Position numbers and translations under genes: made by a program. 64,000 nt of DNA from an uncultured Pseudomonadota bacterium (GTDB taxonomy: Bacteria; Pseudomonadota; Alphaproteobacteria; Rs-D84), in the NCBI GenBank assembly GCA_949283535.1, contig CASDTC010000001.1, positions 8,540 through 72,539 on the forward strand. The letters run 5' to 3'. The notes under the pieces are model-generated. The model did no database searches and was not told where the DNA came from. It was given only the letters and a program-made list of their open reading frames with translations. This document shows positions 4,080 through 44,878 of this stretch, one piece after another (within the stretch, counting starts at the first letter, position 1; each line of letters starts with the position of its first letter).

Positions 4080-4080
4080 T

Positions 4081-10932: not shown

Positions 10933-11766
10933 TTATTCCGCTTCGTCCAATGCCGATTCGATTTGATCAGCCGGGATTGCGCCTGGGAACGCTTTTTCAC
11001 CGATAATCAAGAACGGTGTTCCGCTGATTTCAAAACGCTGTGCCAAATCGCGAACATTTCTTAATTCACGGGCAACAACTTCGCCATCCATATCTTTTTT
11101 CAACTGTTCTGTATCCAGACCAGCTTCTTTTGCGAATTTCATAACATTTTCTTCGACTTTATCAGCCAATGTTGATTGGTCTTTCAGGTCATCTTGTGTA
11201 TAGAATTCGCGTGTCATTAACATATTTGTTAATTCGGCTGCCTTTGCAGGATCTTGCATATTTGCAGCAATAACTGCGCGTGCCGGACCATCTGATAATG
11301 GACCATGGATAGAGAAGTTCTTTATAACAACGCGTGTGTCATCGCGATCTGCCAATACGCGTTCGATTTCACCATGTACGCGGCGGCAATATGGGCAAGA
11401 GAAGTCTGTCCAAACATAGATTGTCTTTTTCGCGTCACGATTTCCCAAAACTGGGGCATCACGCATCATTTTATCGCCGTCGGAACGAACATATTTACGA
11501 ATTTGTTTGTTCTTTTCAGCCTGTTGCTGTTCTTGCATGCCGTTGACCATTTCCTGAACGATTGCCGGGTTAACAGCAGTCAGGTAATATGGCATGTACA
11601 TGCGGCACATGCTGCCTGAAATCAGGATAATTGCAATTACTGCAATGCATTTGTTTGCAACAATTTTTCCAGCAGATGGATTTTTTGCATCGCCCTTTGG
11701 CAGCAGCATGCCACCAAACAGAAACAGCAGAACACCAACCACCAGAACCAATATTGTCCAAGTCAT
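10933..11766 (-). CDS. Membrane-anchored DsbA-family thiol:disulfide oxidoreductase
   Basis: Strong RBS AAGGAG; two N-terminal hydrophobic segments; thioredoxin-fold active site WTDFSCPYCRRVH. Confidence 0.8.
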   Translation of the reverse strand: MTWTILVLVVGVLLFLFGGMLLPKGDAKNPSAGKIVANKCIAVIAIILISGSMCRMYMPYYLTAVNPAIVQEMVNGMQEQQQAEKNKQIRKYVRSDGDKMMRDAPVLGNRDAKKTIYVWTDFSCPYCRRVHGEIERVLADRDDTRVVIKNFSIHGPLSDGPARAVIAANMQDPAKAAELTNMLMTREFYTQDDLKDQSTLADKVEENVMKFAKEAGLDTEQLKKDMDGEVVARELRNVRDLAQRFEISGTPFLIIGEKAFPGAIPADQIESALDEAE

Positions 11767-14980: not shown

Positions 14981-16081
14981 ATGGAAAAATACTTAAACCA
15001 GATTTTGACCGGCGATTGTATAGAAATCATGCGTGGTATCCCAGATGCATCTGTTGATGCGGTATTTGCGGATTCACCATATAATTTACAATTGGGGGCG
15101 AAAACTTTATATAGACCCGAAGATCAAACCGCTGCGCGTGCGGTTCGTGATGCATGGGACGCATTTGACAGCCCGGCGGCATATGATGAATTTACGCGCC
15201 AGTGGTTGGCACAGTGCAAGCGGGTGTTGAAACCTGATGGGGCAATGTGGGTAATTGGCAGTTATCATAACATATTCCGTGTTGGGGCGATATTGCAAGA
15301 TTTGGGCTTTTGGATTTTGAATGATATTGTTTGGGTGAAAACAAATCCTATGCCTAATTTCCGGGGGACGCGTTTTACAAATGCACATGAAACATTGATT
15401 TGGGCGACCCCGCGTAAAACAGGTAAATATACATTTAATTATGAAACGATGAAGCGTTTGAATGGTGGTAAACAAATGCGTTCAGACTGGAATATAAATA
15501 TTTGCCTGGGGGAAGAACGGGTAAAAGATAAAAACGGTAAAAGTTTGCATAATACGCAAAAACCAATGGATTTATTGCGCCGGGTGATTCTGGCATCGAC
15601 CAAGCAGGGCGATGTTATTCTGGATCCGTTCTTGGGCAGCGGTACCACCGCAGCGGTTGCCAAAGAGTTAGGGCGCAATTTTATTGGTATTGAACGCGAA
15701 GAATCATATGTCGCGGCGGCACGGGCGCGTGTTGATGCAATTCAACCAATTGATTTGTCAGAAATAGAGGTTGCTACACCAAAACGGGCAGAAGTTCGTG
15801 TTGCGTTCAAGGAATTAATAGAGGCAGGGCTGTTATATGTTGGACAAACATTAGTTAGCCCGCGCGGCGAACGCGTCATGATTACCCGTGATGGGCAATT
15901 GGTTCATTCATTGCATGGCAAGGCGTCCATTCATGTTATGGCGGCGCGCCTGCAACATTGTGTCAGCTTTAACGGTTGGGATTACTGGTCGGCGGAAAAG
16001 CGCGATGGGTCATTGGTGCCAATTGATGAATTGCGCAGCTATGTGCGTAATGTTAAACGCAATATAAAGCAGGCAGCGTAA
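14981..16081 (+). CDS. ccrM: CcrM-type (beta-class) N6-adenine DNA methyltransferase, motif IV reads DSPY
   Basis: VFADSPYNL sits N-terminal to DPFLGSGTTAAVAKELGRNFIGIE. A roughly 90-aa C-terminal extension is typical of CcrM. Confidence 0.8.
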   Translation: MEKYLNQILTGDCIEIMRGIPDASVDAVFADSPYNLQLGAKTLYRPEDQTAARAVRDAWDAFDSPAAYDEFTRQWLAQCKRVLKPDGAMWVIGSYHNIFRVGAILQDLGFWILNDIVWVKTNPMPNFRGTRFTNAHETLIWATPRKTGKYTFNYETMKRLNGGKQMRSDWNINICLGEERVKDKNGKSLHNTQKPMDLLRRVILASTKQGDVILDPFLGSGTTAAVAKELGRNFIGIEREESYVAAARARVDAIQPIDLSEIEVATPKRAEVRVAFKELIEAGLLYVGQTLVSPRGERVMITRDGQLVHSLHGKASIHVMAARLQHCVSFNGWDYWSAEKRDGSLVPIDELRSYVRNVKRNIKQAA

Positions 16082-16110
16082 AAAATGTCCATATGGACAT
16101 TTTTTATTTT
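16080..16110. terminator. Bidirectional terminator
   Basis: aaaaaatgtccatatggacatttttta. Confidence 0.8.
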
Positions 16111-16484
16111 GTTTTCTGAAACAGTGCGGCAATTTGTGAACGGATTGCCGGGAAAAAATGGTTGCTTTGGCGGTTTTGGGTTGTGTATGCTGTATCTTCG
16201 GCGGTATCAACGATATAGCGTTCATAATCATAAGAAGGTGAATCTTCGTCTGGTGTTAAATCATATAAATATGCCGCGATTTCTGTTAATAATTGTTCGT
16301 TTCGTATACGATTTAATCGAATTTCAGATTCCAATGAAACAGATTCCCCATTGTATTTAGATAACAGTTTTAACAGATTTGTTTTATATTCTGTTTGTGC
16401 GTTTGATGCGCGATATGCCATCATGATAATTTTTATATTTGCAATTATTCGTTCGCGTTCAATAATACGAAATCCTGGTGTCAT
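16104..16484 (-). CDS. Hypothetical protein (126 aa)
   Basis: It is the only long ORF in this gap and ends at the bidirectional terminator. No recognisable motif. Confidence 0.45.
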   Translation of the reverse strand: MTPGFRIIERERIIANIKIIMMAYRASNAQTEYKTNLLKLLSKYNGESVSLESEIRLNRIRNEQLLTEIAAYLYDLTPDEDSPSYDYERYIVDTAEDTAYTTQNRQSNHFFPAIRSQIAALFQKTK

Positions 16485-29398: not shown

Positions 29399-32300
29399 TT
29401 ATTCCCAACTGACAATCCATGATGTTGGCGATGTTATAGTGCAACTGTTTCCATTTCCGCCCCATGCATTTTGGTTATCATACTGCTGGATGCACTCATC
29501 ACCATTGGAATCACGATAAAAGTTCTTTGGGTATGGTGTTACGGGATCTTCAATGGTATTGTCTTCATAGCGTGGGGTTAAATATGTTCCTGATTTTGAT
29601 ACCTGTACATATTTGCCGCCGTTGCAATTTACGGTTCGCCCCGATGGAAAATCGTCTTGTGTTTCTGAACCTTCAACATTGCCACCAATGCATAATATAT
29701 ATGTAAGATCATTGCCAGAACCGTATGCAGCGACAAATGTTATGTTTGTGTTGGACGGTGGCAGGCATAAACCAGCTTCAGGCATGTTTGTGGTATTGGA
29801 ATTGAAATATGCAGAATTTGTATCCCAATTTAGCCCTTTTATTTCTGTGTCTGTTGTACCATTAATACAGCATTTTCCAGATGTATCTGTTGAACCAACG
29901 GTGCTTTGGTCTCTTTCTGTGGCGGCGCAACAATTGTCCATACCATTTTCATCAATTGCGTTGGTTCGCAGATATGGTGGAACGGGACAATACCATCCGT
30001 CATCAGAGAGTTCACTATTTGAAATGCATATAGTTATACCGTCAACCAGATCTGGTATATAACCCGGTCCGCATGATGTATCACGACAGCTGTCAACATC
30101 ATCTTGGGTATTTGTATTCTTGGCAAACCACGATAACAGGGTGTCGGTGGATTTATCGTCTGGCATTTTAATTCTGTTATGTGAATTTTCTGCGGATAAA
30201 TTTGCTGTTGGATGGGTTTCGCAATTGCCCCATATGCTTTCCGCAATGCGGCATACATGACATTCATTAGAGTTTGGATTTGTGGCGCAATATTCGCTGG
30301 CACAAATGTCATAAATACATTCTTCGTTGTCGGATGTTATGCAGATTGTTTTCAGTCCTTCGTCTGTGCCATCTGTTGTGATATATTGTTCTGATGGATT
30401 GATACCATACATTTGTTCATAGAATTTTCCGTCTATTATTGTTCCGTTGGCAACCAATTGCGCTGTTATTTGGTCAATTGCATCGGCGCCGGCACTGGCA
30501 ACACAATTATATACTTCGTCCCAACATGCCGTGCGGTTAATAATAGATTTTCTGTTAACGGATGTTTGAATATTTTCACACAGACCAAAATTACCAGATA
30601 TAGATTTACATGATTGTATTATACAATTGCGACCAACTTCGCGGCATGTTTGTAATATTGTTTCATATGTTTTGTCATTTGCAATTTCTGTCATGCCAGA
30701 TGACCAATCAGTTCCACCGTCAACTGTATCCAATAATGCGGTGCAGGATGCCTGGACTTCGGCACACATTTGTTTTACGGTTTTATCTGCGGCAACACCA
30801 AATATAGATAGTGCACGGGCATCGAAATCTTCCAGTGATTCTGCGGCGTCAGATAAGCATTGGGCGGTTAATGTGGTGCATGACTGGCGAACTTCTTCCA
30901 GTTTGGCATCTTGTGCCAATTTTATTTGCGCCAATGCATCATCAATAAATTGATCCCATACTGTGTCGGCAATATCTTCGCAATTTTCAGTTGCAGATTC
31001 CAAGAACATCTTTTTAGAATTTAAGTATGATACAAATTTTTCGTTGCCGGGTGCGCTGGTCCATGTTTGGTTGCCAGATGGGCGGGTAATCAAACTGCCC
31101 AGGTTGACCAAGTTTGATGTTAATATTGCTTCACCGGTTGATGGGTCAATATATTGACCACTGATATCCAAACATTTTTCCAGATTTTCACCACATACAG
31201 ATGTACTGCTTAACATATCCAGCATTTTGCGTTTGCATGTTAAAATATCATCAGAATTGCGGGTCTGGTAATCGTCCAGACGCGACATATCCAGTAATGC
31301 ACTGCTTTCCAGTATTTGTTCGCGTGCCTGGTTTTGTTGTGTTTGATATGTCTTGGCAACGGTATTGCAATCTTGTTCAATTAACATTTGATATCCGCTT
31401 TCTGCGATGGATAATTCATTGGTGGTGCAAACCTCCATCGCCATTTCGCGACATACTGGTAATGCCGCGTTATATAAATCTGTTCCAGATTTTGCAGTCG
31501 TTGATGTGCCGGATAAAGAATCCAAACTGTCAAATGCTGCATCTGTATTCAATGATAACGATATAGGGGCCAGGTTTGCATCAAAACTGCTGGTGTCGAA
31601 TGTAGTATTTAATTTGTCGGCAATTTCATCCAATAATTTTTTTGAATCGGATGTGTCGTCTTGGTTAAATGCGATTTCGCCTTCGGTTGCCTGGTATAAT
31701 GCTTCGGCGTCTTCTTTATCCATATTAACGGTCAACAAGCGTTGGCTGAAATCTAACAGTTTGTCTTCCACTTCTGCCAGTTGGGCTTTGACATCATCAA
31801 ATTCATTCGCACGGGCAGAACATGCACAGCGTTTTAATTGACTGTCTTTATTGGCACAGAATTCGTCCATGCAATTATAAAATACATTGCGGCATGTGGT
31901 GTAATCACGGTTTATTATTTCTTCGGCAGTTATTGCCGCACGCGATATACGCGCGCCAGATGTCGCACTGCGCGCGGTGGTGTTTTTTGCAGGGGTGGTT
32001 ATTGTGCGCGCAGATGTTGCCGCACGCGATATCGTTGATGTTGTACCATTGTCGCGTGCATTTGATGTGGTTGTTGTAATGGTTCGACTGCCAGGGCGCG
32101 TGGCATTTGTTGTTGCGGTGCGTGCGCTGGATACAGATGGTACAGATATCACACCAGATTTATTAACCGTTGCACGGGGCATAACATTTGATGTCGTGCG
32201 CGCAGATACGGCCTGTGATGTGTTTTCTGTTGTGGTGCGTGTGCCACTGTCGCGAACAACAACACTAGTGCGCGCAGTCGTTGTGCGTTCGCGTACATTT

Positions 32301-32530
32301 TGCGTCGTTTCTGTATTTTGTTGGCGCGTTGTTGCGCGCGATATTCCCGATATTGCATTTGCGCGTGATGATATGGACGCGGTACCAGATTCACCACGAT
32401 TTGACACGACTGTTGTCGCCGCGCTGCGTCGCGTGGCCGCGCGTGCCATATCGGCATCATCGTTCGCATATGCGCATTGAATTCCAATAAACGCAATGCA
32501 TGTCGCCAAAAATAATTTGATTCCTTTCAT
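29399..32530 (-). CDS. Giant cysteine-rich exported protein (1043 aa), third paralog of the 1..3591 family
   Basis: Signal peptide MKGIKLFLATCIAFIGIQCAYA, then about 190 aa of T/S/R/A-rich low complexity. Family motifs are YNCMDEFC..CACS, CGENLEKC and ECHVCRIAESIWGNCET. The C-terminal extension contains SCGPGYI. Confidence 0.75.
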   Translation of the reverse strand: MKGIKLFLATCIAFIGIQCAYANDDADMARAATRRSAATTVVSNRGESGTASISSRANAISGISRATTRQQNTETTQNVRERTTTARTSVVVRDSGTRTTTENTSQAVSARTTSNVMPRATVNKSGVISVPSVSSARTATTNATRPGSRTITTTTSNARDNGTTSTISRAATSARTITTPAKNTTARSATSGARISRAAITAEEIINRDYTTCRNVFYNCMDEFCANKDSQLKRCACSARANEFDDVKAQLAEVEDKLLDFSQRLLTVNMDKEDAEALYQATEGEIAFNQDDTSDSKKLLDEIADKLNTTFDTSSFDANLAPISLSLNTDAAFDSLDSLSGTSTTAKSGTDLYNAALPVCREMAMEVCTTNELSIAESGYQMLIEQDCNTVAKTYQTQQNQAREQILESSALLDMSRLDDYQTRNSDDILTCKRKMLDMLSSTSVCGENLEKCLDISGQYIDPSTGEAILTSNLVNLGSLITRPSGNQTWTSAPGNEKFVSYLNSKKMFLESATENCEDIADTVWDQFIDDALAQIKLAQDAKLEEVRQSCTTLTAQCLSDAAESLEDFDARALSIFGVAADKTVKQMCAEVQASCTALLDTVDGGTDWSSGMTEIANDKTYETILQTCREVGRNCIIQSCKSISGNFGLCENIQTSVNRKSIINRTACWDEVYNCVASAGADAIDQITAQLVANGTIIDGKFYEQMYGINPSEQYITTDGTDEGLKTICITSDNEECIYDICASEYCATNPNSNECHVCRIAESIWGNCETHPTANLSAENSHNRIKMPDDKSTDTLLSWFAKNTNTQDDVDSCRDTSCGPGYIPDLVDGITICISNSELSDDGWYCPVPPYLRTNAIDENGMDNCCAATERDQSTVGSTDTSGKCCINGTTDTEIKGLNWDTNSAYFNSNTTNMPEAGLCLPPSNTNITFVAAYGSGNDLTYILCIGGNVEGSETQDDFPSGRTVNCNGGKYVQVSKSGTYLTPRYEDNTIEDPVTPYPKNFYRDSNGDECIQQYDNQNAWGGNGNSCTITSPTSWIVSWE

Positions 32531-32601: not shown

Positions 32602-32685
32602 TGGTGCGGACGGGGGGACTTGAACCCCCAAGGTTTTACCCACAGCATCCTTAGTGCTGCGCGTTTACCGTTTCGCCACGCCCGC
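32602..32685 (-). tRNA. tRNA-Leu with anticodon AAG (type II)
   Basis: Manual fold: acceptor GCGGGCG/CGTCCGC, D arm with GG, anticodon stem CAGCA/TGCTG, loop C-T-A-A-G-G-A, 13-nt variable arm, T arm GGGGG-TTCAAGT-CCCCC, A73, CCA. Confidence 0.8.
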
Positions 32686-32784
32686 ATTCGCGGCACGGCG
32701 GCACTTCACTTCGCTGCGTAGTCGCCACGCCCGCATTCGCGGCACGGCGGCACTTCACTTCGCTGCGTAGTCGCCACGCCCGCA
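32673..32784. repeat. 49-bp tandem repeat (2 identical copies plus 14 nt) that begins inside the 5' end of tRNA-Leu(AAG)
   Basis: tcgccacgcccgcattcgcggcacggcggcacttcacttcgctgcgtag occurs at 32673..32721 and 32722..32770, with a partial copy at 32771..32784. Confidence 0.9.
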
Positions 32785-32872: not shown

Positions 32873-34336
32873 ATGAGAAAAGCATCCTTGTTTATATTGG
32901 CGTTTTTACCATTTGCGGCACATGCGGCGGGAACATATTATACCGGCGCATATCAATCGCCACAGACGCGTTATTCAACACAAACATATGCCCAGCGTCA
33001 AACAGGCTATAACCGCAGTTATACAACGCCATCGTATGCCAGTACGCGGTATAATACCACGGCAACACAAAATGCTGCAAATAATACAACGCAACGCGTT
33101 GCAACCAATACTACGCAAGCACAGTCATCAAAAAAATCTGGATTTTGGTTGGATGCGGGAATTACGCATGAAATGGCGCAATGGCAATTTAGTATGAATC
33201 AATCGGGCAGTATTTTAAGTTATGATAATATTGCATGGAATGTTTTGGATGTTAGTGCTGGTTATGCATTCGATGTTGGCAGTACTACTTTACAAGTTGA
33301 TGCCGGATTTAAATACGGTATGCAATGGGGCGAAAACGCCATGTATGATGATGATATTACAAATGGTGGATATTTGGTTACATCATGGACAGGTGATGTT
33401 AATGATGATCAAGAAGCAGACAGTGGTACATTTGATCAGATTGGGCATGCGATGTCAATCGGTACCAGCCAGGGCGGAAATATGATGGAATTTAATGTGG
33501 GCTTTGGTTTGACAGATGTGTTTAAGATTGGAAATATGTCGATTACACCATCGGTTGGATATCGCTACTTAAAATATAAACTGGAAACAGAAAAGAACTA
33601 TGGTTTGGCGGTTGATACGCATGCGTGTTTCGAAATTGATGGTGAAATTCAATGTGATCCGGCATTGATATTTAATTTTGATAATGGAAACCAGGCGATT
33701 ATTTGGCGTGATGATATAACTGTGCCTGTAAAAATTCCAGATGGGTCAACCAGTGTTGATACGGCAGGAACATATTATTATCAACAGCCGGGGGTCAGCC
33801 ATTCTTATGAAACAACATGGGCGGGACCATATATTGCATTAGATATGGATTATATCATTAATCAAAATAATGCAGTAAATGGACATATAGAATTAGGATT
33901 CCCAGGATATACATCCGAAGGTGATCAGCCATATCGTTTTGACTGGGCGCATCCAAAAAGTGTCGAAGACGAAGCAGGTATGTTCAGTGCATTCCATTTT
34001 GGTTTGGGGGCGAATTGGACAACGGCAATAACAGATGCAGTTGCATTATCAATTGGATTGACATATGATTACTATACCGTCAGTGGCGCGGATGCAAAAA
34101 CATACTTGAATGAATCGTACTATACAGATATGTATAATGCGATATTAAATCAAGAAGGTGCGCCGTGGCAGGGAAATGAAACAGCAATGTTGGATCCAGA
34201 AACGGGCAGTCCAACCGCAATAAATATCAAGGCGTTGGAAGAACAATGCCCCGGATGGGTTTGTTCAACGGGCGGTGAAGTAGATTCTTTCTATAAGGCA
34301 CTGGGGATACGTGTTGGTATAAATGCAAAGTTTTAA
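32873..34336 (+). CDS. Outer-membrane beta-barrel protein with T/Q/Y/R-rich N-terminal region
   Basis: Signal peptide MRKASLFILAFLPFAAHA. After a low-complexity stretch come many amphipathic strands, and the terminal beta-signal is GIRVGINAKF. Confidence 0.7.
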   Translation: MRKASLFILAFLPFAAHAAGTYYTGAYQSPQTRYSTQTYAQRQTGYNRSYTTPSYASTRYNTTATQNAANNTTQRVATNTTQAQSSKKSGFWLDAGITHEMAQWQFSMNQSGSILSYDNIAWNVLDVSAGYAFDVGSTTLQVDAGFKYGMQWGENAMYDDDITNGGYLVTSWTGDVNDDQEADSGTFDQIGHAMSIGTSQGGNMMEFNVGFGLTDVFKIGNMSITPSVGYRYLKYKLETEKNYGLAVDTHACFEIDGEIQCDPALIFNFDNGNQAIIWRDDITVPVKIPDGSTSVDTAGTYYYQQPGVSHSYETTWAGPYIALDMDYIINQNNAVNGHIELGFPGYTSEGDQPYRFDWAHPKSVEDEAGMFSAFHFGLGANWTTAITDAVALSIGLTYDYYTVSGADAKTYLNESYYTDMYNAILNQEGAPWQGNETAMLDPETGSPTAINIKALEEQCPGWVCSTGGEVDSFYKALGIRVGINAKF

Positions 34337-34343
34337 TTAAAAG

Positions 34344-34955
34344 ATGAATTTGAAAAAGTTATTGTTTGTAATGATTTGTGCAATCGCGCCATTGGGCGCG
34401 ATTGCGGGCGATTTGTCGGGGGTGGCGTCTGTCAGTGTTACCAGTGAAACCGCCGCAATGGCAAAAGATATGGCGTTTGATGAGGCGCGCCGTCAAATTA
34501 TCAAAGATGTATTGGGACAATATGCAAATGTGGAACAATTAGTGGGGGTATTGCAAAACACAAAAAATTCAGAACTGACAAATTTAATCGCATCTTCGTC
34601 TATTGACAGTGAACAGCAATCTGATACAACATATTCTGCAAATATTTCAATGACGGTTAATCGTGATGCAGCGCGGGCGTGGCTGACGGAAAATAATGTT
34701 CAAAATTGGCTGACGGATGGTATTTCTGGTGATGTTTTTGTTGCCCAGATTGTAATGTCTGATAGATTGGCGGGGTGGATGGAATTAAATCAAATCGCCA
34801 GAAATGAGGATATTGTAATGACAACAAAATATATAAATGGAAATCAAATAACGGTTGAAATTCCTGTTGCTAGTCGTGCGGATTTTACAATTGCTGTACG
34901 CGAGGCAGGATGGCGATATTCTGACCAGAATGGGATATTGCGTATTGTGAAATAA
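34344..34955 (+). CDS. Exported hypothetical protein (203 aa)
   Basis: Signal peptide MNLKKLLFVMICAIAPLGAIAG. The gene is 7 nt downstream of the previous gene. Confidence 0.6.
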   Translation: MNLKKLLFVMICAIAPLGAIAGDLSGVASVSVTSETAAMAKDMAFDEARRQIIKDVLGQYANVEQLVGVLQNTKNSELTNLIASSSIDSEQQSDTTYSANISMTVNRDAARAWLTENNVQNWLTDGISGDVFVAQIVMSDRLAGWMELNQIARNEDIVMTTKYINGNQITVEIPVASRADFTIAVREAGWRYSDQNGILRIVK

Positions 34956-34964
34956 TGTATCAAA

Positions 34965-35861
34965 TTGGTTTATGACTTGAAAGCTTTTTCTGTATTTTTA
35001 TTGTTTCTGGGGTTGCCTGTTATGGCGATGGCTGATGATACGGTGGGTGTTAAATCTTTATTCGGCGTGTCGCATGATGACAGTAAATTGCAATTGTCTG
35101 TTCGCAGAATTGGGCTGGATTGGTCGAAAACCCAGGTGCGAAATGCCGCAGAATACCAGGATTCGCCTGTGTCTGCATTAAATGCAACCAGTCAAGATTA
35201 TATCAAAGGTGTTTTTGATACCATACTGGAATATACAAAAAATAAATTTAAGTGGGATAATAGTTTATTTATGGAATATGGCAAAACAACTTTAAAGCCA
35301 TATAATGCGCCCGCGACCACAGATGAAAATGCCGATAAAATTTTGTTTTCCAGTGATTTGTCGTATGCATGCTGGGATTTTTCAGGGCTAAAATTTGGTC
35401 CAACTGTTCGTGCGGCGTATGAAACACAATTTGCAGACAGTGCAGAATCGCCACGGCAAAATATTATTCGTTCCAGTGCTGGTATTTCTTTGTTTGATCA
35501 TAAAATTATAAAAAGCCTGTATTTAACAGGTATACACGAATATGATTTCACATATGCAGGGGCACAAAACAGTAAAATTGGTGCAGAATTTGGTTGGCGT
35601 TTAGAATATCCTGTTCGTGATGGGGTTAAATTTTCTGCTGATGGTTATTATCGTGAATATTTTTCTTATTCTCGTTATGTCGGTACGGATTTAGAAAGGG
35701 ATTTAAGTGCAGTTGTGCGTTTGGATACAAATTTATGGGGGGATTTTACAATGGGACCATATGTTCAATATCGTTTGGCACGCGCCCGCGGTGCAGAACA
35801 TTATGGCAGTAATTTAATATTTGGAATTTCTTTTAATTATATTACAAAATTTTTATTATAA
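34965..35861 (+). CDS. Exported protein, probable outer-membrane beta-barrel
   Basis: Non-ATG start (TTG at 34965 or 34977). Signal-like LKAFSVFLLFLGLPVMAMA; aromatic-rich alternating pattern throughout. Confidence 0.5.
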   Translation: MVYDLKAFSVFLLFLGLPVMAMADDTVGVKSLFGVSHDDSKLQLSVRRIGLDWSKTQVRNAAEYQDSPVSALNATSQDYIKGVFDTILEYTKNKFKWDNSLFMEYGKTTLKPYNAPATTDENADKILFSSDLSYACWDFSGLKFGPTVRAAYETQFADSAESPRQNIIRSSAGISLFDHKIIKSLYLTGIHEYDFTYAGAQNSKIGAEFGWRLEYPVRDGVKFSADGYYREYFSYSRYVGTDLERDLSAVVRLDTNLWGDFTMGPYVQYRLARARGAEHYGSNLIFGISFNYITKFLL

Positions 35862-35895: not shown

Positions 35896-38268
35896 TTATT
35901 TCACAACGCTGAATTTTATGCTGGTTCCTGTGCCCATTTCGTCAATTATTTTTATAATATGATCGCCCATTGGAACTGTATGACGAAATGTTTCGCCAGA
36001 TGTACCCGTGTGAATTAATTTATCATCCAAGAACCAAAACATTTTTGCGTCTGTTATGTCTGATATGGCGCGGAATGCTATATCTTCATAATCTTTATCA
36101 GATGTTATTACGGTTCGTGTGCCGTCAATTGGTGACATTATCACAGGTGGATTACGGTGTGCGGCGATATCGTCTAAATTACATCCAGGCATAAATGGTG
36201 GTGGGGTGTTGCGATGGATGCCGGCGCGTTGAAACATATCCAGATATTCGGCATCCCAAAATTCATATATGCGCATTTTGGTCGTTTTGGGATTCCTGGT
36301 GCATGCGCGCAGCCCTGTTTTTATATCAATTGGAACCGCACGATAAATTGTTGATGTTTCAATTGGCGATTTGCCAGGAATAAAATATGCCATTGTTGTT
36401 TTAGGACAATATTTCCCCGCCAATCCACCAACACCATCGCACATTTCTATTTCTGATATATTTAAATCATTGCGCCAGAAATTATTATTTTTTATTGGAT
36501 GACCGTGTGTTGCATAATATTTTTCAACTGTGCGCGCCAATGAAAAATATATTGGTGCCGCGGTTTTTGCACCACTGAATGCATTATTTGGGGTGCCGTC
36601 AAAATTACCAACCCAAACAATTAACACAAAATCACCAAATATTCCCGCGGTCCATGCATCGCGAAATGATGATGATGTGCCAGTTTTCCAATAATGACGC
36701 AGTGTATTTGTTTGCTGCTTTGCAAATGGAATATTTTTTGTTGGGGTTGATTGGCGTGCCAACATGTCCATTACTATAAAAAATGCTTCTGGACTTAATA
36801 TTTGTTTCCTGGTGTTTGATTGTGTGGCGGTTTCTGTGTGAATCCCGTGGCGTAGCCCCAGGTTTGCCATTGTTGCATATATATCCGCCAGTTCCAACAT
36901 TGATACTTCGGCGCCGCCCAATGCAACAGATATTCCGTAATAGTCGGGCGATTTCAGATTTGATACACCGGATTCAGATAATATTTTATAGAAATTTTTG
37001 GTTCCTATTTTCTTTAATAAATTGATTGCCGGAATATTTCGCGAATGTGTCAGGGCATCCCGCGCCAATACTGGACCATAAAATTCGCTGTCGGCGTTTT
37101 CCGGGGCATATACACCGAAATTTATTTTTGCATCTTTTAACAATGTCATCGAATGTATAAATCCCATGTCAACTGCTGTTGCGTATATTAATGGTTTCAG
37201 GGTTGAACCAGGACTGCGGCGTGCGCGAACACCATCGTTTTCGCCATATATTGATTTATCAAAATAATTAACAGAACCAATATATGATAATACATCCATC
37301 GTTTTATAATTTAATAAAATTGCCGCAGCATTTTGCACACCGATACTGTGGCGGCGTGCGATTTCATTTGATAATGTGCGTTCCATGGCAGATTGTAAAT
37401 CTGTGTCCAGTGTTGTTCGAACCGCCCAATTATGCGGACCCATATCGTTCCAATAATTATTATATTTTGCGGATACATAATTAACAAAATGTGGTGCGCG
37501 AAACGGTAATTTCTGTGTCGTGCGGGCATTTAACGGCATTTGTGCCAGTGTTGCCAGGGTGGCATCTTCTGGGTTTTGTTCAATCCAGCGCCGAACCAGG
37601 TCTGTACGCATGTTCATTATATTCTGGATACCTGTTTTGGTGTTCAGACCGCGTTTTATCGGATTTTGTGGGATTGTTGCCAGGGTAATGGATTCAATTT
37701 TTGATAATTCAGATGCGGGTTTATTAAAGTATATTAATGATGCGGCACCAATGCTTTCGATATTACCACCATATGGTGCCAGGTTTAAATATGCTTCTAA
37801 AATTTCGTCTTTGGAATAAAACATATCGATATAAATTGCCGCGGCAATTTGTTTCAGTTTTCCCCAGATTTGTCGTGTATCCATGTCGTATTTCATGCGG
37901 GCAACCTGCATCGTTATGGTTGATGCACCAATTTGTCGGGCGGCGTCAGCAGAAAAATAGTTCTTTGCTGCCCGAACCAATGCGATTGGGTTTATCCCGG
38001 GATGATATTTAAAATATTTGTCTTCATATAAAATTGTTGCCTGTTGTAATGTTTGGCTGATTTCGGATAATGGTGTATACAGACGATATTTTTCATCTGC
38101 GGTCAGTGTTATACGCATTAATTCCCCATTTCTGTCCAGGTATGCGCGACCAAAGTGCGTATCGGATAACAGTGGTGGGGTGAAAAAGAGTTTTATTATT
38201 ATGTATGCAATTACAAATATTGCAATTATTGTAAATAAAATCCAATGACGGCGAATGTATGCCGTCAT
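35896..38268 (-). CDS. pbpC: Penicillin-binding protein 1C (start uncertain: 38268, 38310 or 38313)
   Basis: N-terminal TM segment; glycosyltransferase motifs ILYEDKYFKYHPGINP and STITMQVAR; transpeptidase SxxK (GSTLKP); C-terminal PbpC-type domain. Confidence 0.85.
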   Translation of the reverse strand: MTAYIRRHWILFTIIAIFVIAYIIIKLFFTPPLLSDTHFGRAYLDRNGELMRITLTADEKYRLYTPLSEISQTLQQATILYEDKYFKYHPGINPIALVRAAKNYFSADAARQIGASTITMQVARMKYDMDTRQIWGKLKQIAAAIYIDMFYSKDEILEAYLNLAPYGGNIESIGAASLIYFNKPASELSKIESITLATIPQNPIKRGLNTKTGIQNIMNMRTDLVRRWIEQNPEDATLATLAQMPLNARTTQKLPFRAPHFVNYVSAKYNNYWNDMGPHNWAVRTTLDTDLQSAMERTLSNEIARRHSIGVQNAAAILLNYKTMDVLSYIGSVNYFDKSIYGENDGVRARRSPGSTLKPLIYATAVDMGFIHSMTLLKDAKINFGVYAPENADSEFYGPVLARDALTHSRNIPAINLLKKIGTKNFYKILSESGVSNLKSPDYYGISVALGGAEVSMLELADIYATMANLGLRHGIHTETATQSNTRKQILSPEAFFIVMDMLARQSTPTKNIPFAKQQTNTLRHYWKTGTSSSFRDAWTAGIFGDFVLIVWVGNFDGTPNNAFSGAKTAAPIYFSLARTVEKYYATHGHPIKNNNFWRNDLNISEIEMCDGVGGLAGKYCPKTTMAYFIPGKSPIETSTIYRAVPIDIKTGLRACTRNPKTTKMRIYEFWDAEYLDMFQRAGIHRNTPPPFMPGCNLDDIAAHRNPPVIMSPIDGTRTVITSDKDYEDIAFRAISDITDAKMFWFLDDKLIHTGTSGETFRHTVPMGDHIIKIIDEMGTGTSIKFSVVK

Positions 38269-38293
38269 GGATTTTAATATTTGTAAAAATTTG

Positions 38294-41200
38294 TTATTTT
38301 TCTGCACCATCATATACGGTAAATGTGCCAGATTTTCCCATCGCATTAATTTGTGGGTTATACATTGATTGGGCAGAAACTGGTGGAATACTGAATTTAC
38401 CGGCAACCCCCAATTGAGCAGTGTATGTAAATTCTGATTCTGTGCGGTTCAGGTCGGTGTATATCAATACCCGATCTTCACGCATTTCAGAAAATTCAGC
38501 GTTCCCGTTTACAGAATCTATGGTTGGTATGAAGCCGCCTGGCAACAGGTCTGTGATTACAACATTGTCGGCGACATCAGTATTGTTGCGTGTGCGTGCA
38601 AATATTTTTACGGTTATAATACCGCCGATATTCCCAGATGTTATTTTATTACCGTTCATATCATAATATTCACGAATAATTTCGATACCATTTGAATATT
38701 GTGCGGTGGTTGTTGGATAACCTTGCTGTATTATTGTGTAATACAGTGTATTATTGTCATTACAATCGTTGCATATTATATTTAATTCAGATGTATCAGA
38801 TGGAATATTCATCATTATGGCATTGTTTTCTGGGGTAATTATTTTTGCGCCTGAATCATTTAATGCAATCGATATTTCTGGCAATTCAGTCGCATTTGAT
38901 TTTTGACCAGACATTGCCATTATTACCGCTGCAGATGTGTATGCGCTGTAATCGCCAGAATTTATATATTTGCGTATGGCGTCTGATTCCGTTGCATCAT
39001 TGTGTGTATTAAAATATTTTGTCGCCATGTAATAATACATTGAATCATTCGCAACGCTGTTGTCAAACATTGCATTGTATGCGAATTTTGAATTTGATGA
39101 TAATTTATATTTTGTAATTAAATCGTATGCTAAATCATCTTGCTTTAATATTTTATACGATGTTGCAATGTATGTTCCCATCAGTTTCGATTGCCAATCT
39201 GGTATATTTTCATTGGCGTATTGGGTGAATGTATCAATATAACTGGTTGTTACATAATTGTTTTCAGAAATAACATATATTGCATATGCCATTGCTGCTG
39301 CGTATGTGTCGTCTGTTATTGTGGCACCCGCAAAACTGCGCAGGTAATCGATCGCACGCGATAACATTTGGTCTGGAACTGTGAATCCCGCATCATTTGC
39401 AATTGTTAAAAACTGTGCAACATATGCGGTTAAATATGCCGTATTGGCGTCATTTTCAGGTGTGATACCCGTTGACCATAATGCAAACGAACCATCATCA
39501 TTTTGACGATTTTTTAACAGATTTATTGTTTCTGTGATTTTTTTCGCCGATGTGTCAAATGTTGTCCCCAATATTTTATCATCTGGGAACAAGGCATATG
39601 GCATTGCACGTGATACCAATTGTTCTGTACACGGCAGGTCATATTTTGACAGATATTCATATAATGGTATTACCATTGCCGTTGCGCCACGGGTTATATA
39701 AATGCGATTTGTTGCAAATTCTGGGTACATTGATATCAGAAAATCTGTCGCGTTTGTTTTTGATGAATTTATTTCACCAAATTTAATATTTGTTGTAAAC
39801 GGTGTAATTGGACGCACTGATAGTGTGTTTATGGCATTGCGTGTTGCCAATGTCTGGTCATCAGGTGATGTCAGGCGGGCATTTGTTGTTATTTCGGCAT
39901 TGCCCAGTTTATCAGTGGCGCGTGCATCAAATGTAAATAATTTTTCTGATTCAAATGGCACAATTGCACTTGCGGTGGTATTTGTTATTTCAATGTCATC
40001 GGTTGAATTTATTGATACAGATGCATTGGCAGATGTACCACTGTCGCGTGTCATGTTCGTTATTACTGAATTTATTTTAAACGAATCGTTTGGCGCAATA
40101 AATGTTGGTGCAGATGTAGATATTATTAACGGTGATTGAACCAATGTTTTTGTGTCTGTGGCACCAACCGCGTTGTCACGTGCGGCAATTGCAAATACAG
40201 TAATTTCACCATTAAAGTATTCAGGAATATCAAATTCAACGGTGCCTGGTTTATTTGCCTGGGCGTTAATAATGCCAGAATAGAACGCAACTGGTGGTAA
40301 TGTACGGCGTGCAAATGGATTATTTGTGATTTGTTCCAATGCGCCTGCATCCCCACCGTAATCACCACCACCAGTTTTCGCATATTCACGTAATATGTTA
40401 TATTCAGGCAACAATAATGATAAAATTTGATATGTATTTACCTGTAATGCAGATTTTTGAAAGAAATGTGCCAATGGATTTGGAATTTGATATTTTGCAA
40501 CCTGTAATATGCCATGATTAATTGCAAAAATCATCATTCTGGCGGATTTATCAGATGTGTATTTTACGGTTAATTTATTATCCGTAATTATTTCTGGGGT
40601 TTGTAATTTTATATTTATATTATGTGCCGATGTGTCGGATGCAAATGGTGCAACCGCATATGCATATGGGATTGTGAATATATCGTGGCTGTTTATATCA
40701 CGGACAAATGATACATTGATGTACCCAGTACCTTCAAATCCAGATGGAACGGTTATATGTTGTACAGATGTTGTAGATTTTGTTTTAAACCATTTGTACG
40801 CATATACTTTGTCGCGTTCGATTGTTATTAATCCAGTGCCAATATATGGCGCGGTTATGTTAATTTCGATTTCTTCGCCCGGGGCATATTCGGTTTTATC
40901 CAATTTTATTTGTAATTCTGCGTTTGTGTCTGTTTCCAATGTTGTATTTTCGCCTGCAACAAAATATTCAATATTTGTCAATATTCGGTCTGATGAATCC
41001 AATATTTGCAGGAAATATGTTCCGCTGTTTTTTGTGTTTAATGTAATATCTGTTCCTGTTTGTGGAATGTCGATTTTGGATTCTGATACGATTTTATCTG
41101 ATGAAACAGTTTGGTATTTATAGTAATTATTATAGTCTTTGACCAATGTGGTTTTATTTTCACGGCGCATCAGGCGCATTGTTAAGCCTTTTGCCACAGT

Positions 41201-44062
41201 TTGCGTTGCCGTATGATCCAGTGCGATAAAATTAATTTTATGTGCGGAATTTTTGTTTATATATGATAAATCTGTTGATGCATGATATCCAATCAGATAT
41301 TTAGCATCAGATACGCGGGTTGATATATTTGTTTGTACACTGGTGCCAGAATTTGCATCAAAACCACGGATGTTCATTGTCATAACATATGTCCCAGATG
41401 GAACAGGTGTATCAAATTTTATATCGATTGTTGCCATGCCGTTTTCGTCTGTGGTTGTGTCTGGTAATTCAACAGACATTGTTTGTGCGCGGCGTGCGGT
41501 ATTTTCGGAAATTTCACCATTTAATGTAAAATTTGGGGTGAATATATATTTGCTGTATTGTGGGAAAGAATATTGTACAGGTGTTAATGTTGCATTTGCC
41601 GCAATCTTGCGTGATACAGCCGGCGTTCCAAATAAATTACGCAGTGAAACATTTGCCGATAAATTATCTGGTGCAATCCATCCGTTTTCAGTTGCGTCCG
41701 CAATATTTGCCGTAATTTTCATGGTGTCTGGCATGAATTCTTGGACATCAAAGTTTAATGCGCCCAATGTATCCTGGGGCAGGTCGCGCGTATTTAATGA
41801 ATAAACAAATGCGTTCCATGTACCCAATTGTGCATCAGATGGTATTTCATATTTTATATCAAACATGCCGTCTGAATTCAGGGAAAATGTTTTTTCTAAT
41901 GCCAATCGACCCCGTGCATCACGCAGTTCAAATTTTACAGGTATTCCTGCCAATGATTTAAATGATTTGTTTTTTACAATTCCACCAATAATCATTGATT
42001 CCCCAGGACGATAAATTCCACGATCAGAAAATATAAATGCATTTAACGGATTTGATGCAACAGAATATACACCATCAATATCAAATTTAGAATATTCAAC
42101 GCGTTGTGCGTACGCATTATATGGGATGAATGCGACATCATTGCCGTGCCGTGCAACAATTGCAACGGGTTCGCGGGCATTTCTGTATTCTGACCATGAT
42201 AATTGGGGAATGTCAACACGACCATTTTCATCTGTGCGACCAACCCATACCGCATTACCATTGCGACCCAAGACGGAAATTTCAACATCTGATGCCGGTT
42301 TGCCACTGGACAGATTTGATACAAATACAGATGATGATTCGTCCAGATTTGCTTTACGAATAATTCCCATGTCCGTCAGTAAAATTAAGCGTTTGTCATT
42401 ATAGTTTGCCGTATTTTCCGATGTGCCAGTTTGAATAACAAATATTCCAGTATTATCACCATATGTCCTGTCCAGGTAATCACCCAGGTCAACAGATGCA
42501 TAACTGGCGCGGGTCATTGATGGATTGGCAAAAGATATTTTTTTCTGGAATACAACAGACATATCATATACACCAAATGCCCATGATTTGAATTCCATTG
42601 CCGACGAGAAAACATCATATGTTTGTGATATTAAATGATTTATTTCATCTGATTTTATTTTATATAAATTTATGTATGCGGTATCAACACCACCACGGGC
42701 AACGATACCTAGTTTACGGTCCCCTGATAACGACAATAATGCGCCTGTGCCGGAAATTTCAACTGTTGCCGCCGGGTATGGTACGCGCATTACGTTGTTT
42801 ATACCGTTCTTCATTATAAAATCGTTTGCGGATTTTGTTCCTGGTTTTACAGATACATATATATATCGTGGACCATTGTCAGACACAACATAAGAAAAAG
42901 CATATTGATGAACGCCGTTTGGTGATGCAATGTCCATACTGGTCAATTCCAGTTTTTGTGATTTGTTTAAAACATCATCTGTAATTTCATCGTTTTTCCA
43001 TTCGTGGTTGCGGTTTGATTTTTCTTCATCGTTGTTATGATATTTTGGCAACAGATATGCAGATATATATTCAGACCAATTTGTTTTATCAGATGCAGAT
43101 GCCGTGGTATTTAGTAATATTGCCTGGTTCGAATTGCCGTCAATGTTGTTTGCAATAATTGTTTCTAGTGATGAAATTTTATATATGTTATCCGCAGATT
43201 CAACAGTCGCATGCGCGGTTAATTTTTCTGTGCGTGAATCACCCGCCATTGATGGAACACGATTTAATTTTAAACGTATTGTTTGGGCGACATCTGTTAT
43301 TTTTACGGGTTCGGATATAATAAATGCAGTACGATGGAATTTGTCGAATCGTACATTAAAATTCAACTTTTTATTATCCAGTTTTAAAGATACTTTATCT
43401 GCAAAATCGGTCGTATTAATTTCGTAATTGAAAGATATAACCGCAATACCAATGACAGATTTTTTATCATCATGGGCGGTATACAAATTAAAATTATCGA
43501 CAGTTGCCGTAATTTCCGGTGTTGTAAAAGATACGCGTGTGGTGTCTGGTTTTACATCGTCATTAAAAATATCAGAATTTATTTTTACGGTGAATTTTGT
43601 TCCAGCGGGCCATGCAGATTCTGGGGTAAATATAACCGTGTTATCGCCGCGTATTGACCAAGTACCGCGAACAAACGGTGATATTTTTATATTTTTTGCC
43701 AAATCTGCGTCTGTTAAATTCATTTGAAAAGCTGGGGCATAATTTCCAGATTCTGGGGTATATGAAATTACAGCGTTACCAGATGTGCTGATGGTTCGGC
43801 TGTTGTTTGGTTCAGGAATGCTGGATGGGGTCGCAAAAAACAAGGTGTTATTGTCAGTAAATGTTGCAATGTCCGGGATATACACATTTGCGGTAAATAT
43901 TGCTTTATTATTATTATTTGCCGCGATATGCCACCATGCTATTGCGCCAATTATGATGATTACAGCCGTTGAAATCGCGCCGATTATTAATTTTGTGCGG
44001 CGTGATATACGCGATGCAGTTTTTTTTCTTTTTGCTGAATTTGAATGCTGTGAATGACGCAT
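38294..44062 (-). CDS. Bacterial alpha-2-macroglobulin (YfhM/ECAM-like), thioester-containing, TM-anchored
   Basis: The ATG at 44062 follows AGGAAGGGG. N-terminal signal-anchor LIIGAISTAVIIIIGAIAWW. It has many Ig-like MG-type repeats and a thioester CTEQ, and sits immediately upstream of pbpC. Confidence 0.9.
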   Translation of the reverse strand: MRHSQHSNSAKRKKTASRISRRTKLIIGAISTAVIIIIGAIAWWHIAANNNNKAIFTANVYIPDIATFTDNNTLFFATPSSIPEPNNSRTISTSGNAVISYTPESGNYAPAFQMNLTDADLAKNIKISPFVRGTWSIRGDNTVIFTPESAWPAGTKFTVKINSDIFNDDVKPDTTRVSFTTPEITATVDNFNLYTAHDDKKSVIGIAVISFNYEINTTDFADKVSLKLDNKKLNFNVRFDKFHRTAFIISEPVKITDVAQTIRLKLNRVPSMAGDSRTEKLTAHATVESADNIYKISSLETIIANNIDGNSNQAILLNTTASASDKTNWSEYISAYLLPKYHNNDEEKSNRNHEWKNDEITDDVLNKSQKLELTSMDIASPNGVHQYAFSYVVSDNGPRYIYVSVKPGTKSANDFIMKNGINNVMRVPYPAATVEISGTGALLSLSGDRKLGIVARGGVDTAYINLYKIKSDEINHLISQTYDVFSSAMEFKSWAFGVYDMSVVFQKKISFANPSMTRASYASVDLGDYLDRTYGDNTGIFVIQTGTSENTANYNDKRLILLTDMGIIRKANLDESSSVFVSNLSSGKPASDVEISVLGRNGNAVWVGRTDENGRVDIPQLSWSEYRNAREPVAIVARHGNDVAFIPYNAYAQRVEYSKFDIDGVYSVASNPLNAFIFSDRGIYRPGESMIIGGIVKNKSFKSLAGIPVKFELRDARGRLALEKTFSLNSDGMFDIKYEIPSDAQLGTWNAFVYSLNTRDLPQDTLGALNFDVQEFMPDTMKITANIADATENGWIAPDNLSANVSLRNLFGTPAVSRKIAANATLTPVQYSFPQYSKYIFTPNFTLNGEISENTARRAQTMSVELPDTTTDENGMATIDIKFDTPVPSGTYVMTMNIRGFDANSGTSVQTNISTRVSDAKYLIGYHASTDLSYINKNSAHKINFIALDHTATQTVAKGLTMRLMRRENKTTLVKDYNNYYKYQTVSSDKIVSESKIDIPQTGTDITLNTKNSGTYFLQILDSSDRILTNIEYFVAGENTTLETDTNAELQIKLDKTEYAPGEEIEINITAPYIGTGLITIERDKVYAYKWFKTKSTTSVQHITVPSGFEGTGYINVSFVRDINSHDIFTIPYAYAVAPFASDTSAHNINIKLQTPEIITDNKLTVKYTSDKSARMMIFAINHGILQVAKYQIPNPLAHFFQKSALQVNTYQILSLLLPEYNILREYAKTGGGDYGGDAGALEQITNNPFARRTLPPVAFYSGIINAQANKPGTVEFDIPEYFNGEITVFAIAARDNAVGATDTKTLVQSPLIISTSAPTFIAPNDSFKINSVITNMTRDSGTSANASVSINSTDDIEITNTTASAIVPFESEKLFTFDARATDKLGNAEITTNARLTSPDDQTLATRNAINTLSVRPITPFTTNIKFGEINSSKTNATDFLISMYPEFATNRIYITRGATAMVIPLYEYLSKYDLPCTEQLVSRAMPYALFPDDKILGTTFDTSAKKITETINLLKNRQNDDGSFALWSTGITPENDANTAYLTAYVAQFLTIANDAGFTVPDQMLSRAIDYLRSFAGATITDDTYAAAMAYAIYVISENNYVTTSYIDTFTQYANENIPDWQSKLMGTYIATSYKILKQDDLAYDLITKYKLSSNSKFAYNAMFDNSVANDSMYYYMATKYFNTHNDATESDAIRKYINSGDYSAYTSAAVIMAMSGQKSNATELPEISIALNDSGAKIITPENNAIMMNIPSDTSELNIICNDCNDNNTLYYTIIQQGYPTTTAQYSNGIEIIREYYDMNGNKITSGNIGGIITVKIFARTRNNTDVADNVVITDLLPGGFIPTIDSVNGNAEFSEMREDRVLIYTDLNRTESEFTYTAQLGVAGKFSIPPVSAQSMYNPQINAMGKSGTFTVYDGAEK
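39620..39631 (-). other. Thioester motif C-T-E-Q of the alpha-2-macroglobulin
   Basis: The reverse complement tgt aca gaa caa encodes CTEQ within YDLPCTEQLVSRA. Confidence 0.8.
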
Positions 44063-44242
44063 GTGAAACCCCTTCCTGCTTAATGTATTTATATTAGATG
44101 CGAAAAGGTGAAAAAACAAGTCAAATTAATTAATTTTTTGCACATGTATATTTTTATGAGATTTTGTCTGTGTAAAAACTGGGGAGCGGCTTTTATGGGG
44201 CGAGAATGCGTGTGTTTGCCAACAGATAAAAAGGGGTAGAAT

Positions 44243-44878
44243 ATGATATATGGCTATATACGTGTGTCAACAGATCACCAAACCACCGAAAATCAAAGAT
44301 TTGAAATTAAAAAATTTTGTGAAAAACAAGATTTATCAATTGATTGCTGGATTGAAGAAACTATTTCTGCAACAAAAGATTTAAATAAACGAAAATTAGG
44401 TAGACTGATTAAAAGAATTCAAAAAGATGATATGATAATTGCGTCTGAATTATCACGATTGGGACGCAATTTGCTGCAAATAATGGGTATTTTACACCAT
44501 TGTATGGATATCGGGGCAAAAATTTGGACGATAAAAGATAACTATCGATTGGGGTCAGATATCACCAGCAAAGTTTTAGCGTTTGCGTTCGGTTTGTCGG
44601 CGGAAATTGAACGCAATTTGATATCGCAACGAACAAAAGAAGCCTTGGCGCGTATAAAAGCCGAAGGCAAACATGTTGGGCGTCCCCAGGGCAGCCGCAA
44701 TATATGCAAATTAGATGGTCGTGAAAAATACATATCACAAAAATTGGCGTGTGGCAGCAGCAAATATGAAATTGCCCGGCGATTGCGTGTGCATCGTGAT
44801 ACACTTAGTAAATTTATTAATGTACGTGGAATAACATCAGAAGAATTAATCTTGGATGACGATGATGCAAATCAATAG
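44243..44878 (+). CDS. Small serine recombinase (resolvase/invertase family)
   Basis: RBS AAGGGG; catalytic MIYGYIRVSTDHQ; SRLGRN; C-terminal HTH KYEIARRLRVHRDTLSKFI. Confidence 0.85.
   Translation: MIYGYIRVSTDHQTTENQRFEIKKFCEKQDLSIDCWIEETISATKDLNKRKLGRLIKRIQKDDMIIASELSRLGRNLLQIMGILHHCMDIGAKIWTIKDNYRLGSDITSKVLAFAFGLSAEIERNLISQRTKEALARIKAEGKHVGRPQGSRNICKLDGREKYISQKLACGSSKYEIARRLRVHRDTLSKFINVRGITSEELILDDDDANQ

Follow-up and report, generated by a model that had tools for sequence, protein, structure and literature searches.

The window analysed here is a stretch of 64,000 nucleotides (positions 8,540 to 72,539 of the forward strand of contig CASDTC010000001.1, assembly GCA_949283535.1) from an uncultured alphaproteobacterium of the Rs-D84 lineage. 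On its reverse strand, at 29399..32530, lies a complete open reading frame (ORF) for a protein of 1043 amino acids (aa), 44 of which are cysteines, a density of 4.2%. This ORF is a real, conserved gene, here termed the C-type gene, and its product belongs to a cysteine-rich family with four paralog types. Two of the cysteines fall inside the signal peptide; the other 42, which belong to the mature protein, are each invariant over the 78 ortholog sequences that make up our alignment and profile. Together with 11-kb stretches around orthologous loci in GTDB genomes (numbered L001 onward), these orthologs delineate a mature protein of three segments that are conserved to very different degrees: a basic tether, an acidic helical core and a variable C-terminal part that ends in a beta-rich head. 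In the full-length AlphaFold model, residues 16-202 are disordered, residues 203-700 form long helices, and the C-terminal head is beta-rich and confidently predicted (predicted local distance difference test score, pLDDT, 84-94).

Residues 1-22 (32465..32530, reverse strand) constitute a Sec-type signal peptide according to both the sequence and the ortholog alignment. Specifically, MKGIK is followed by LFLATCIAFIGIQ and then by CAYA, with cleavage predicted to occur before ND. Two other signal types were considered and rejected. The cysteines of the signal peptide are not kept in orthologs, so there is no lipobox with an invariant cysteine and the protein is not taken for a lipoprotein. Similarly, a Tat signal is not supported on inspection, as the candidate 'TRR' lies behind a Sec signal that is already complete, and no hydrophobic region comes after it.

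The acidic core (aa 203-700; 30431..31924, reverse strand) holds 22 cysteines, has an isoelectric point (pI) of 4.2 and carries a net charge of -42. Mean pairwise identity in this segment is 74% among orthologs, all core cysteines are invariant, and the part from about residue 205 to 676 is the domain common to all four paralog types. AlphaFold predicts long helices throughout. Consecutive predicted helices carry cysteine pairs with i, i+7 spacing (551/558 with 589/596, and 629/636 with 669/676), which in the model would be placed to form disulfide-stapled helical hairpins. In being compatible with an antiparallel arrangement, these modelled pairs resemble the twin CX9C/CX3C (CHCH) hairpins of the mitochondrial intermembrane space. 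However, the C-type spacing is CX6C, the context is a 500-aa segment of an exported bacterial protein, and there is no homology between the two. Internal repeats in the core were also considered and rejected, with every segment-versus-segment hhalign comparison yielding a probability of 5% or less.

The initial annotation had proposed that the 1043-aa product is related to the protein encoded at 1087..3591 (forward strand), which we call paralog A (834 aa, 36 Cys, C-terminal VCEDIVM). This relationship is confirmed by BLASTP, which aligns C184-562 with A28-380 collinearly (E=3e-19), and by a profile made of C orthologs alone, which matches A at E=4e-11. The C-type protein carries the family signature, namely a signal peptide and Y-x2-3-C-x6-CMD[EQ]FC-x9-C-x-CS followed by collinear conserved cysteines. 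An alignment of the four paralogs is likewise collinear, with 18 cysteine columns present in all members and 22 common to C and A. By sequence comparison, then, the C-type protein is a genuine paralog of A. The four ordered motifs from which the relationship had first been deduced are all present in the order given, namely Y..C...[FY]..CMD[EQ]FC..C.CS, [DE]LY.AA..C..C..DC, CGE[DN].E.C and the CH[VI]C box. The spacing of x10 assigned to this box does not hold, however; in C (C757..C770) it is x9, against x8 in A and x6 in H, a further paralog.

Paralog H is cut by the left edge of the window, such that profile searches and related contigs place its C-terminal 340 aa at 1..1023 (forward strand); in the related contigs it is complete at 716 aa. 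The fourth paralog, of 840 aa after correction of its start, is encoded just outside and upstream of the window in syntenic contigs, and with a BLASTP E value of 1e-50 it is nearer to C than A is. A profile search of the window revealed no members beyond C, A and the cut H. Thus, the earlier count of three large paralogs in 64 kb stands, with the qualifications that one is incomplete and that a fourth lies beyond the window. The suggestion that the family is expanding does not. Throughout the genus, every paralog type is matched 1:1 by orthologs in conserved synteny, and in a relative at only ~50% identity the A, H and 840 types already exist as distinct genes around infA. The set is thus stable and dates from old duplications; as judged from these sequences the family is ancient and not expanding.

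The A and H types end in a VCEDI[VNP]M tail that is absent from the C and 840 types; the lack of a CEDI[VN]M tail on the C-type protein had been recognized correctly at the outset. On H and A, the VCEDI[VN]M tail is retained even at ~50% identity, in L085. In H it reads CEDINM and is preceded by a glycine-zipper segment of ~45 aa, resembling that of outer-membrane lipoproteins, for which the match to Gly-zipper_Omp is sub-threshold (E=0.0045). The glycine-zipper segment of H and the CEDI tail of H and A may serve as a membrane anchor or a sorting signal.

Homologs of the C-type protein number more than 900 in a database clustered at 90% identity (49-80% identity), and the best 120 mostly cover the whole protein. 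At E<=1e-3 the matches comprise 733 clusters at 50% identity, and 291 loci were found in GTDB species genomes, those of gut Alphaproteobacteria. All named matches are called 'hypothetical protein' and come from uncultured Alphaproteobacteria, a 'Rickettsiales bacterium' or Candidatus Enterousia, in animal, human and termite guts. Two orthologs in the same synteny are found in records with other titles, L046 (CAVGNU010000008.1, 'Bacteroides fragilis') and L082 (OZ246409.1, 'uncultured Muribaculaceae bacterium', a chromosome of 716,531 bp). These titles are probably mislabelled and do not reflect true occurrences beyond Alphaproteobacteria. Enterousia (order Rs-D84) has genomes of less than 1 Mb, is fermentative, lacks standard transporters and is predicted to be an obligate symbiont or parasite (PMC12306168). 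Rs-D84 and Enterousia are widespread in human and animal guts, where their mode of attachment or interaction is not known, and hypothetical membrane proteins of Enterousia have been proposed as candidates for cell-cell interaction (PMC12306168).

More distant relatives, of 600-1759 aa, match only profile positions ~70-640, corresponding to tether and core, and have differing C-termini. The family is therefore modular at its C-terminus, as the initial annotation had supposed. In two of these relatives (P0443 and P0452) the C-terminus is an array of C-x-x-G-[SYW]-[YW] repeats that matches the Pfam family Ephrin_rec_like (PF07699). The gene neighbourhoods of distant relatives conserve the infA-linked paralog cluster and gave no functional clue. 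A 368-aa protein (P0509) that might have represented a stand-alone C-terminal module is apparently a truncated gene call without a signal peptide, and was not counted as evidence.

The basic tether (aa 23-202; 31925..32464, reverse strand) corresponds to the low-complexity T/S/R/A region already noticed behind the signal peptide. It consists of 23% T, 16% A, 14% S and 13% R, with a pI of 12, a net charge of +16 and no cysteine, and is modelled by AlphaFold as disordered (pLDDT ~30). Among the 78 orthologs its identity is 37% and its length varies from 42 to 205 aa; its composition is nonetheless kept, with the net charge staying between +10 and +22 and R:K at 8.7. Arginine positions are 76% conserved (11 of 23 at 90% or more) versus 29-40% for T, S and A positions. 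The guanine plus cytosine (G+C) content of the tether is indeed higher than that of the window (54% vs 41%). This excess resides at codon position 2 (0.72 vs 0.44) and is therefore due to amino-acid composition. A foreign origin of the stretch was rejected, given this position of the excess and an arginine codon usage that matches the remainder of the gene. The 167-aa antisense ORF at 31977..32480 (forward strand), which covers aa 17-185 and was rightly described as a shadow, is an artefact of tether codon composition. Two other statements about the tether need revision. Tandem Repeats Finder detected no tandem arrays in the tether DNA, so the seemingly reiterated SARTT/ISRAAT-like units are compositional. 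Moreover, the 840-aa paralog also has an R/S/T/N stretch of ~160 aa, including a common [IV].ARTTSN-like motif, so such a spacer is not unique to the C type.

Beyond the core, conservation, the model and substitution rates delimit a variable C-terminal part (29402..30430, reverse strand) in which a linker (aa 701-810) precedes a beta-rich, Cys-knotted head (aa 811-1043). The linker contains the CxxC box (aa 755-772, ECHVCRIAESIWGNCET; 30215..30268, reverse strand), which is evident in the sequence, its orthologs and the paralog alignment and is loosely common to C, A and H. Its residues C757, C760, R761, W767, G768, C770 and E771 are invariant in orthologs, and the C757/C760 motif falls at a predicted helix start. 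An invariant C-x-x-C in this position, in a protein with 42 mature cysteines, raises the prospect of a periplasmic protein that handles redox equivalents or metals, for instance as a metal sponge, a thiol buffer or a CxxC oxidoreductase-like protein, in an anaerobic organism without respiratory quinones. The lineage is known to lack respiratory chains (PMC12306168), so its disulfide chemistry may be unusual. However, no thioredoxin-like or metal-binding family is matched, the protein has no His/Cys clusters typical of metal sites, and its large size, hypervariable head and basic tether would be unexpected for a redox buffer. We consider such a role very improbable.

In the last ~230 aa, which form the head, identity among orthologs is only 30%, yet every cysteine is invariant. 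A separate model of aa 735-1043 has lower confidence (pLDDT 70) than the same region modelled at full length. The head contains at most one C-x-x-G-x-[YF] unit, embedded in the larger beta-rich domain. In the window, this unit is the SCGPGYI motif at 30056..30076 (reverse strand), as first reported, a single C-x-x-G-x-Y unit of the ephrin-receptor-like or furin-like Cys-repeat type.

Rates of divergence distinguish the segments further. In seven close pairs of C-type orthologs, the ratio of nonsynonymous (dN) to synonymous (dS) divergence calculated by the NG86 method is 0.03-0.09 for the core, 0.14-0.39 for the tether and 0.07-0.43 for the head. In the two closest pairs, the head exceeds the core in dS by factors of 3.6 and 5.2. 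Sliding windows reveal a mosaic between L006 and L012, in which 600 nucleotides of core are free of differences and the head then differs at ~50% of third positions. Similarly, L035 and L045 differ by 1-5% over the 11-kb locus and by 13-21% in the 3' third of the C-type gene. Given these mosaic blocks and this local divergence, the head is a sharply bounded hypervariable segment that probably recombines. The whole-protein comparison between the window and Ca. E. intestinigallinarum yields 58% identity for the C ortholog and 84% for the A ortholog; among the matches listed, A-type identity is 81-95%.

A strong match to a characterized adhesin or S-layer family would place the protein in a known class, and it was sought in Pfam, NCBIfam, the PDB and by Foldseek without success. 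No Pfam-A (hmmscan) or NCBIfam family matches the 1043-aa protein at E<=1, noise aside, and no PDB sequence matches the 78-sequence profile at that threshold. Foldseek searches of the PDB and BFVD, run with the full model and with a separate C-terminal model, returned nothing at E<=1e-3 (best E 0.05-0.5). For autotransporters, no PF03797 or related match was obtained, and the strands of the head (3-7 residues) are too short for a membrane barrel. For S-layer proteins, there is no SLH or other Pfam or NCBIfam match, and 4.2% cysteine differs from the near-absence of cysteine that is usual there. At E<=1 there is also no Pfam match to OmcB (Chlam_OMP6) or OmcA, and none to PF07699 or Furin-like families in the head, whether the whole protein or aa 801-1043 is searched. 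With no relative in Pfam, NCBIfam or the PDB, the family would count as a new domain family, probably with a new fold.

Foldseek matches to Vip3, adenovirus-knob and plexin/Sema structures were rejected as chance-level. Nevertheless, the Vip3 insecticidal protoxins head the list (E=0.2, template-modeling score 0.07, not significant), and a secreted protein of this large size, helical toward the N-terminus and beta-rich and variable toward the C-terminus, could in principle be an effector or toxin that is released or delivered to a partner or host cell, with the core as delivery or pore scaffold and the variable head as receptor-binding domain. Apart from the fold matches being no better than chance, this proposal fits poorly with one conserved copy per genome, which occupies a fixed place among housekeeping genes and has no genes for immunity, secretion or mobile elements beside it. 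Furthermore, four paralogs with extremely conserved cores (for A, the 81-95% cited above for the matches listed) look structural and not weapon-like. We therefore judge a toxin to be highly unlikely.

The gene neighbourhood points toward the envelope. Divergently transcribed from the C-type gene is a trio of outer-membrane genes (32873..35861, forward strand) for a Pom-family porin, a 203-aa protein and a DUF3078 protein, which keeps its synteny with the C-type gene in 66-69 of 80 species; the porin itself adjoins the C-type gene in 69 of 80. Downstream are pth, the gene for a small outer-membrane protein and polA, and local gene order on both sides holds in 60-69 of 80 loci. The C-type gene is monocistronic, and its 3' end is convergent with pth. 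The porin (32873..34336, forward strand; Protochlamydia outer membrane protein, PF17251, E=2.5e-13) has a T/Q/Y/R/S-rich, low-complexity N-terminal extension behind its signal peptide, which is the second most S/T/R-rich segment of any real protein in the window.

On the same strand as the C-type gene and 71 nucleotides upstream of it is a tRNA-Leu(aag) gene (32602..32685, reverse strand). This adjacency is conserved, with tRNA-Leu directly preceding the C-type gene at orthologous loci in ~52 of 57 species, and in the window no terminator-like site separates the two. The genes are probably co-transcribed, an arrangement that suggests high, constitutive expression from the tRNA promoter. Directly upstream of the tRNA-Leu gene are two perfect 49-nucleotide tandem copies (32673..32770, reverse strand), each composed of the first 13 nucleotides of tRNA-Leu (GCGGGCGTGGCGA) followed by a non-tRNA stretch rich in G+C. 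In L004 the orthologous tRNA-Leu gene likewise comes after two similar partial 5'-tRNA copies (3700..3845), and the feature is thus conserved. Rfam matches nothing in these copies beyond tRNA, and their fold z-score is only -2.0.

The window also encodes small secreted cysteine-rich proteins that are not members of the family. Protein G (57201..57755, forward strand; 184 aa) had been thought to contain a recurrence of the ~300-aa C-terminal module of the C-type protein. This claim was not borne out, as BLASTP yields an 8-residue match (E=0.02) and hhalign 7 columns at a probability of 12%. A head module common to C and G was accordingly rejected, with only the SCGPGY motif (7-8 residues) matching. 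Protein G has 336 homologs of ~180 aa with 12 cysteines, and its conserved basic tail, S-R-x-S-S-[IV]-R-R-T-G-T-x-R-R-x-I-R, is akin in composition to the Arg/Ser/Thr tether of the C type; the two may constitute a common docking motif. Units of the form C-x-x-G-[YW]-Y occur in other small secreted Cys-rich proteins, encoded in the window at 4172..4951 (reverse strand; weak Furin-like_2 match, E=0.019), in L001 at 4012..4713 and in L003 at 15045..16235. Between the C-type gene and pth, some relatives, among them L003, carry three tandem genes for 150-aa lipoproteins and a 396-aa Cys-rich gene. This insert is missing from the window, and the site is therefore one of variable insertion.

By concept, the systems that appear nearest to the C-type protein are chlamydial Cys-rich envelope proteins, ephrin-receptor-like surface proteins and adhesins of the Hop type with a helical stalk. 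The chlamydial proteins OmcB and OmcA are Sec-exported, contain ~4% cysteine and have a basic N-terminal segment followed by a Cys-rich body. They occur in host-dependent organisms and are accompanied by a small Cys-rich partner and a porin of the Pom/MOMP type. The C-type protein shares Sec export, a cysteine content of ~4%, a basic N-terminus, a small Cys-rich protein and a Pom porin in company, and a partner-dependent organism. It differs in the absence of sequence similarity, in its predicted helical core and hypervariable head, and in having an even and fully invariant number of cysteines, which suggests intramolecular bonds.

With ephrin-receptor-like and furin-like repeats (PF07699 and PF15913, found in surface proteins of protists and bacteria), the C-type protein has in common the C-x-x-G-x-[YF] signature carried by its SCGPGY motif. 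Distant family members bear true repeats of this type instead of the head, and small secreted proteins of the same genome have similar units; the C-type head, however, falls below the Pfam models even at E<=1. The Helicobacter Hop adhesins (BabA and SabA) combine a helical stalk, disulfide-clasped loops and a variable, ligand-binding head in a multi-paralog, recombining family. Here the likeness is one of concept, that of a conserved helical scaffold with a variable, recombining head among several paralogs. The C-type protein lacks the C-terminal outer-membrane beta-barrel, matches the Hop proteins neither in sequence nor in fold, has far more predicted disulfides and carries a basic, disordered tether.

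Although we give it somewhat less than an even chance, the interpretation that we prefer is that the C-type product is an abundant, Sec-exported, disulfide-stabilised protein of the envelope or surface in a partner-dependent gut alphaproteobacterium (Ca. Enterousia, Rs-D84). The surface role proposed in the initial annotation is plausible in this light, as an inference. Export past the inner membrane and disulfide pairing are suggested by the signal peptide, the 42 invariant mature cysteines and a DsbA gene annotated in the window (10933..11766). The adjoining outer-membrane genes (Pom porin, DUF3078, OMP_b-brl) argue for an envelope role, and the ephrin-receptor-like Cys repeats at the C-termini of some distant relatives, which are typical of extracellular proteins, argue for an extracellular one. 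We envisage that the tether, with ~180 residues and its arginines held constant, would most likely anchor the protein by binding a polyanionic envelope component (lipopolysaccharide or peptidoglycan) or the acidic cores of neighbouring family members. The acidic helical core would act as the scaffold of the four ancient paralogs, pinned by paired C-x6/7-C motifs on adjacent helices. The beta-rich, Cys-knotted head, fast-diverging and apparently exchanged by recombination, is likely to contact a partner cell, a host ligand or another environmental target.

Several points weigh against this interpretation. If the protein is exposed at the surface, then by which route does it cross the outer membrane? 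It has no autotransporter barrel, lipobox, RTX (repeats-in-toxin) region or sortase-type signal, no secretion system was found in the window, and the protein could stay in the periplasm. The PDB, Pfam and Foldseek searches returned no structural or sequence relative that points to a ligand. The head does not reach a dN/dS of 1, and in variable regions both dN and dS are inflated by alignment error. Confidence in the core model is only moderate (pLDDT 45-85), and its disulfide pairs are putative. Expression level and abundance are deduced from gene order, and conserved synteny is weak evidence in reduced genomes, which seldom rearrange.

The lack of an evident route across the outer membrane makes a periplasmic lattice, similar to the chlamydial complex, a serious rival. 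In such a lattice, the four paralogs and small basic-tailed proteins such as G would be cross-linked by disulfides in the periplasm or at the inner leaflet and would stiffen the envelope. The Arg tether and the G tail would dock on acidic cores or peptidoglycan, and the variable C-terminus would be structurally tolerant instead of ligand-binding. Several large paralogs with 4.2% cysteine, accompanied by small Cys-rich secreted proteins, are consistent with this idea, as are DsbA within the window, the probable high expression from the tRNA-Leu arrangement, the Protochlamydia-type porin next door in 69 of 80 species, and the complementary charges of tether (+16) and core (-42), to which G adds its conserved RRTGT.RR tail. 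However, an even and invariant set of 42 mature cysteines fits intramolecular pairing and leaves no obvious free cysteine for cross-links, and there is no homology to OmcA or OmcB. A lattice also leaves unexplained why the head is sharply bounded and recombining, and why it is swapped for extracellular-type Cys repeats in relatives. On balance we regard a lattice as unlikely, and retain the envelope or surface protein with a contact-making head as the preferred interpretation.

A bolder extension, which we consider distinctly doubtful, is that Rs-D84/Ca. Enterousia independently evolved a disulfide-stabilised protein coat composed of the four paralogs, with a fold unseen in the PDB, Arg-studded disordered tethers that fasten it to the cell and an exchangeable, recombining C-type head that decides to which partner cell or host surface the bacterium adheres. 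In function such a coat, if real, would correspond to the chlamydial outer-membrane complex joined to a phase- or allele-variable adhesin. As estimated from ORF lengths and genome sizes, the four paralog types together amount to ~3,400 aa, or more than 1% of such a genome. With a core under strong purifying selection and one head that diversifies fast, the family is a leading candidate for the machinery by which this lineage contacts other cells or builds its envelope. Regardless of its precise function, which is inferred, this conserved orphan family in an understudied lineage provides a lead for Enterousia biology.

The remainder of the window is unremarkable chromosomal sequence, with genes for DsbA, RecO, SLT, NrdR, ClpPX, ClpB, PBP1C, alpha-2-macroglobulin, S2/Ts, TyrRS, PFOR and others. 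The alpha-2-macroglobulin (1941 aa) and PBP1C (836 aa) genes have overlapping ORFs (35896..44119, reverse strand), so that the known pairing of these two proteins is retained in a genome of less than 1 Mb. Scattered among the housekeeping genes are those for a serine resolvase (44243..44878, forward strand), a Fic/DOC protein (50639..51361, reverse strand) and an N6/N4 DNA methyltransferase with a RAMA domain (14981..16081, forward strand).

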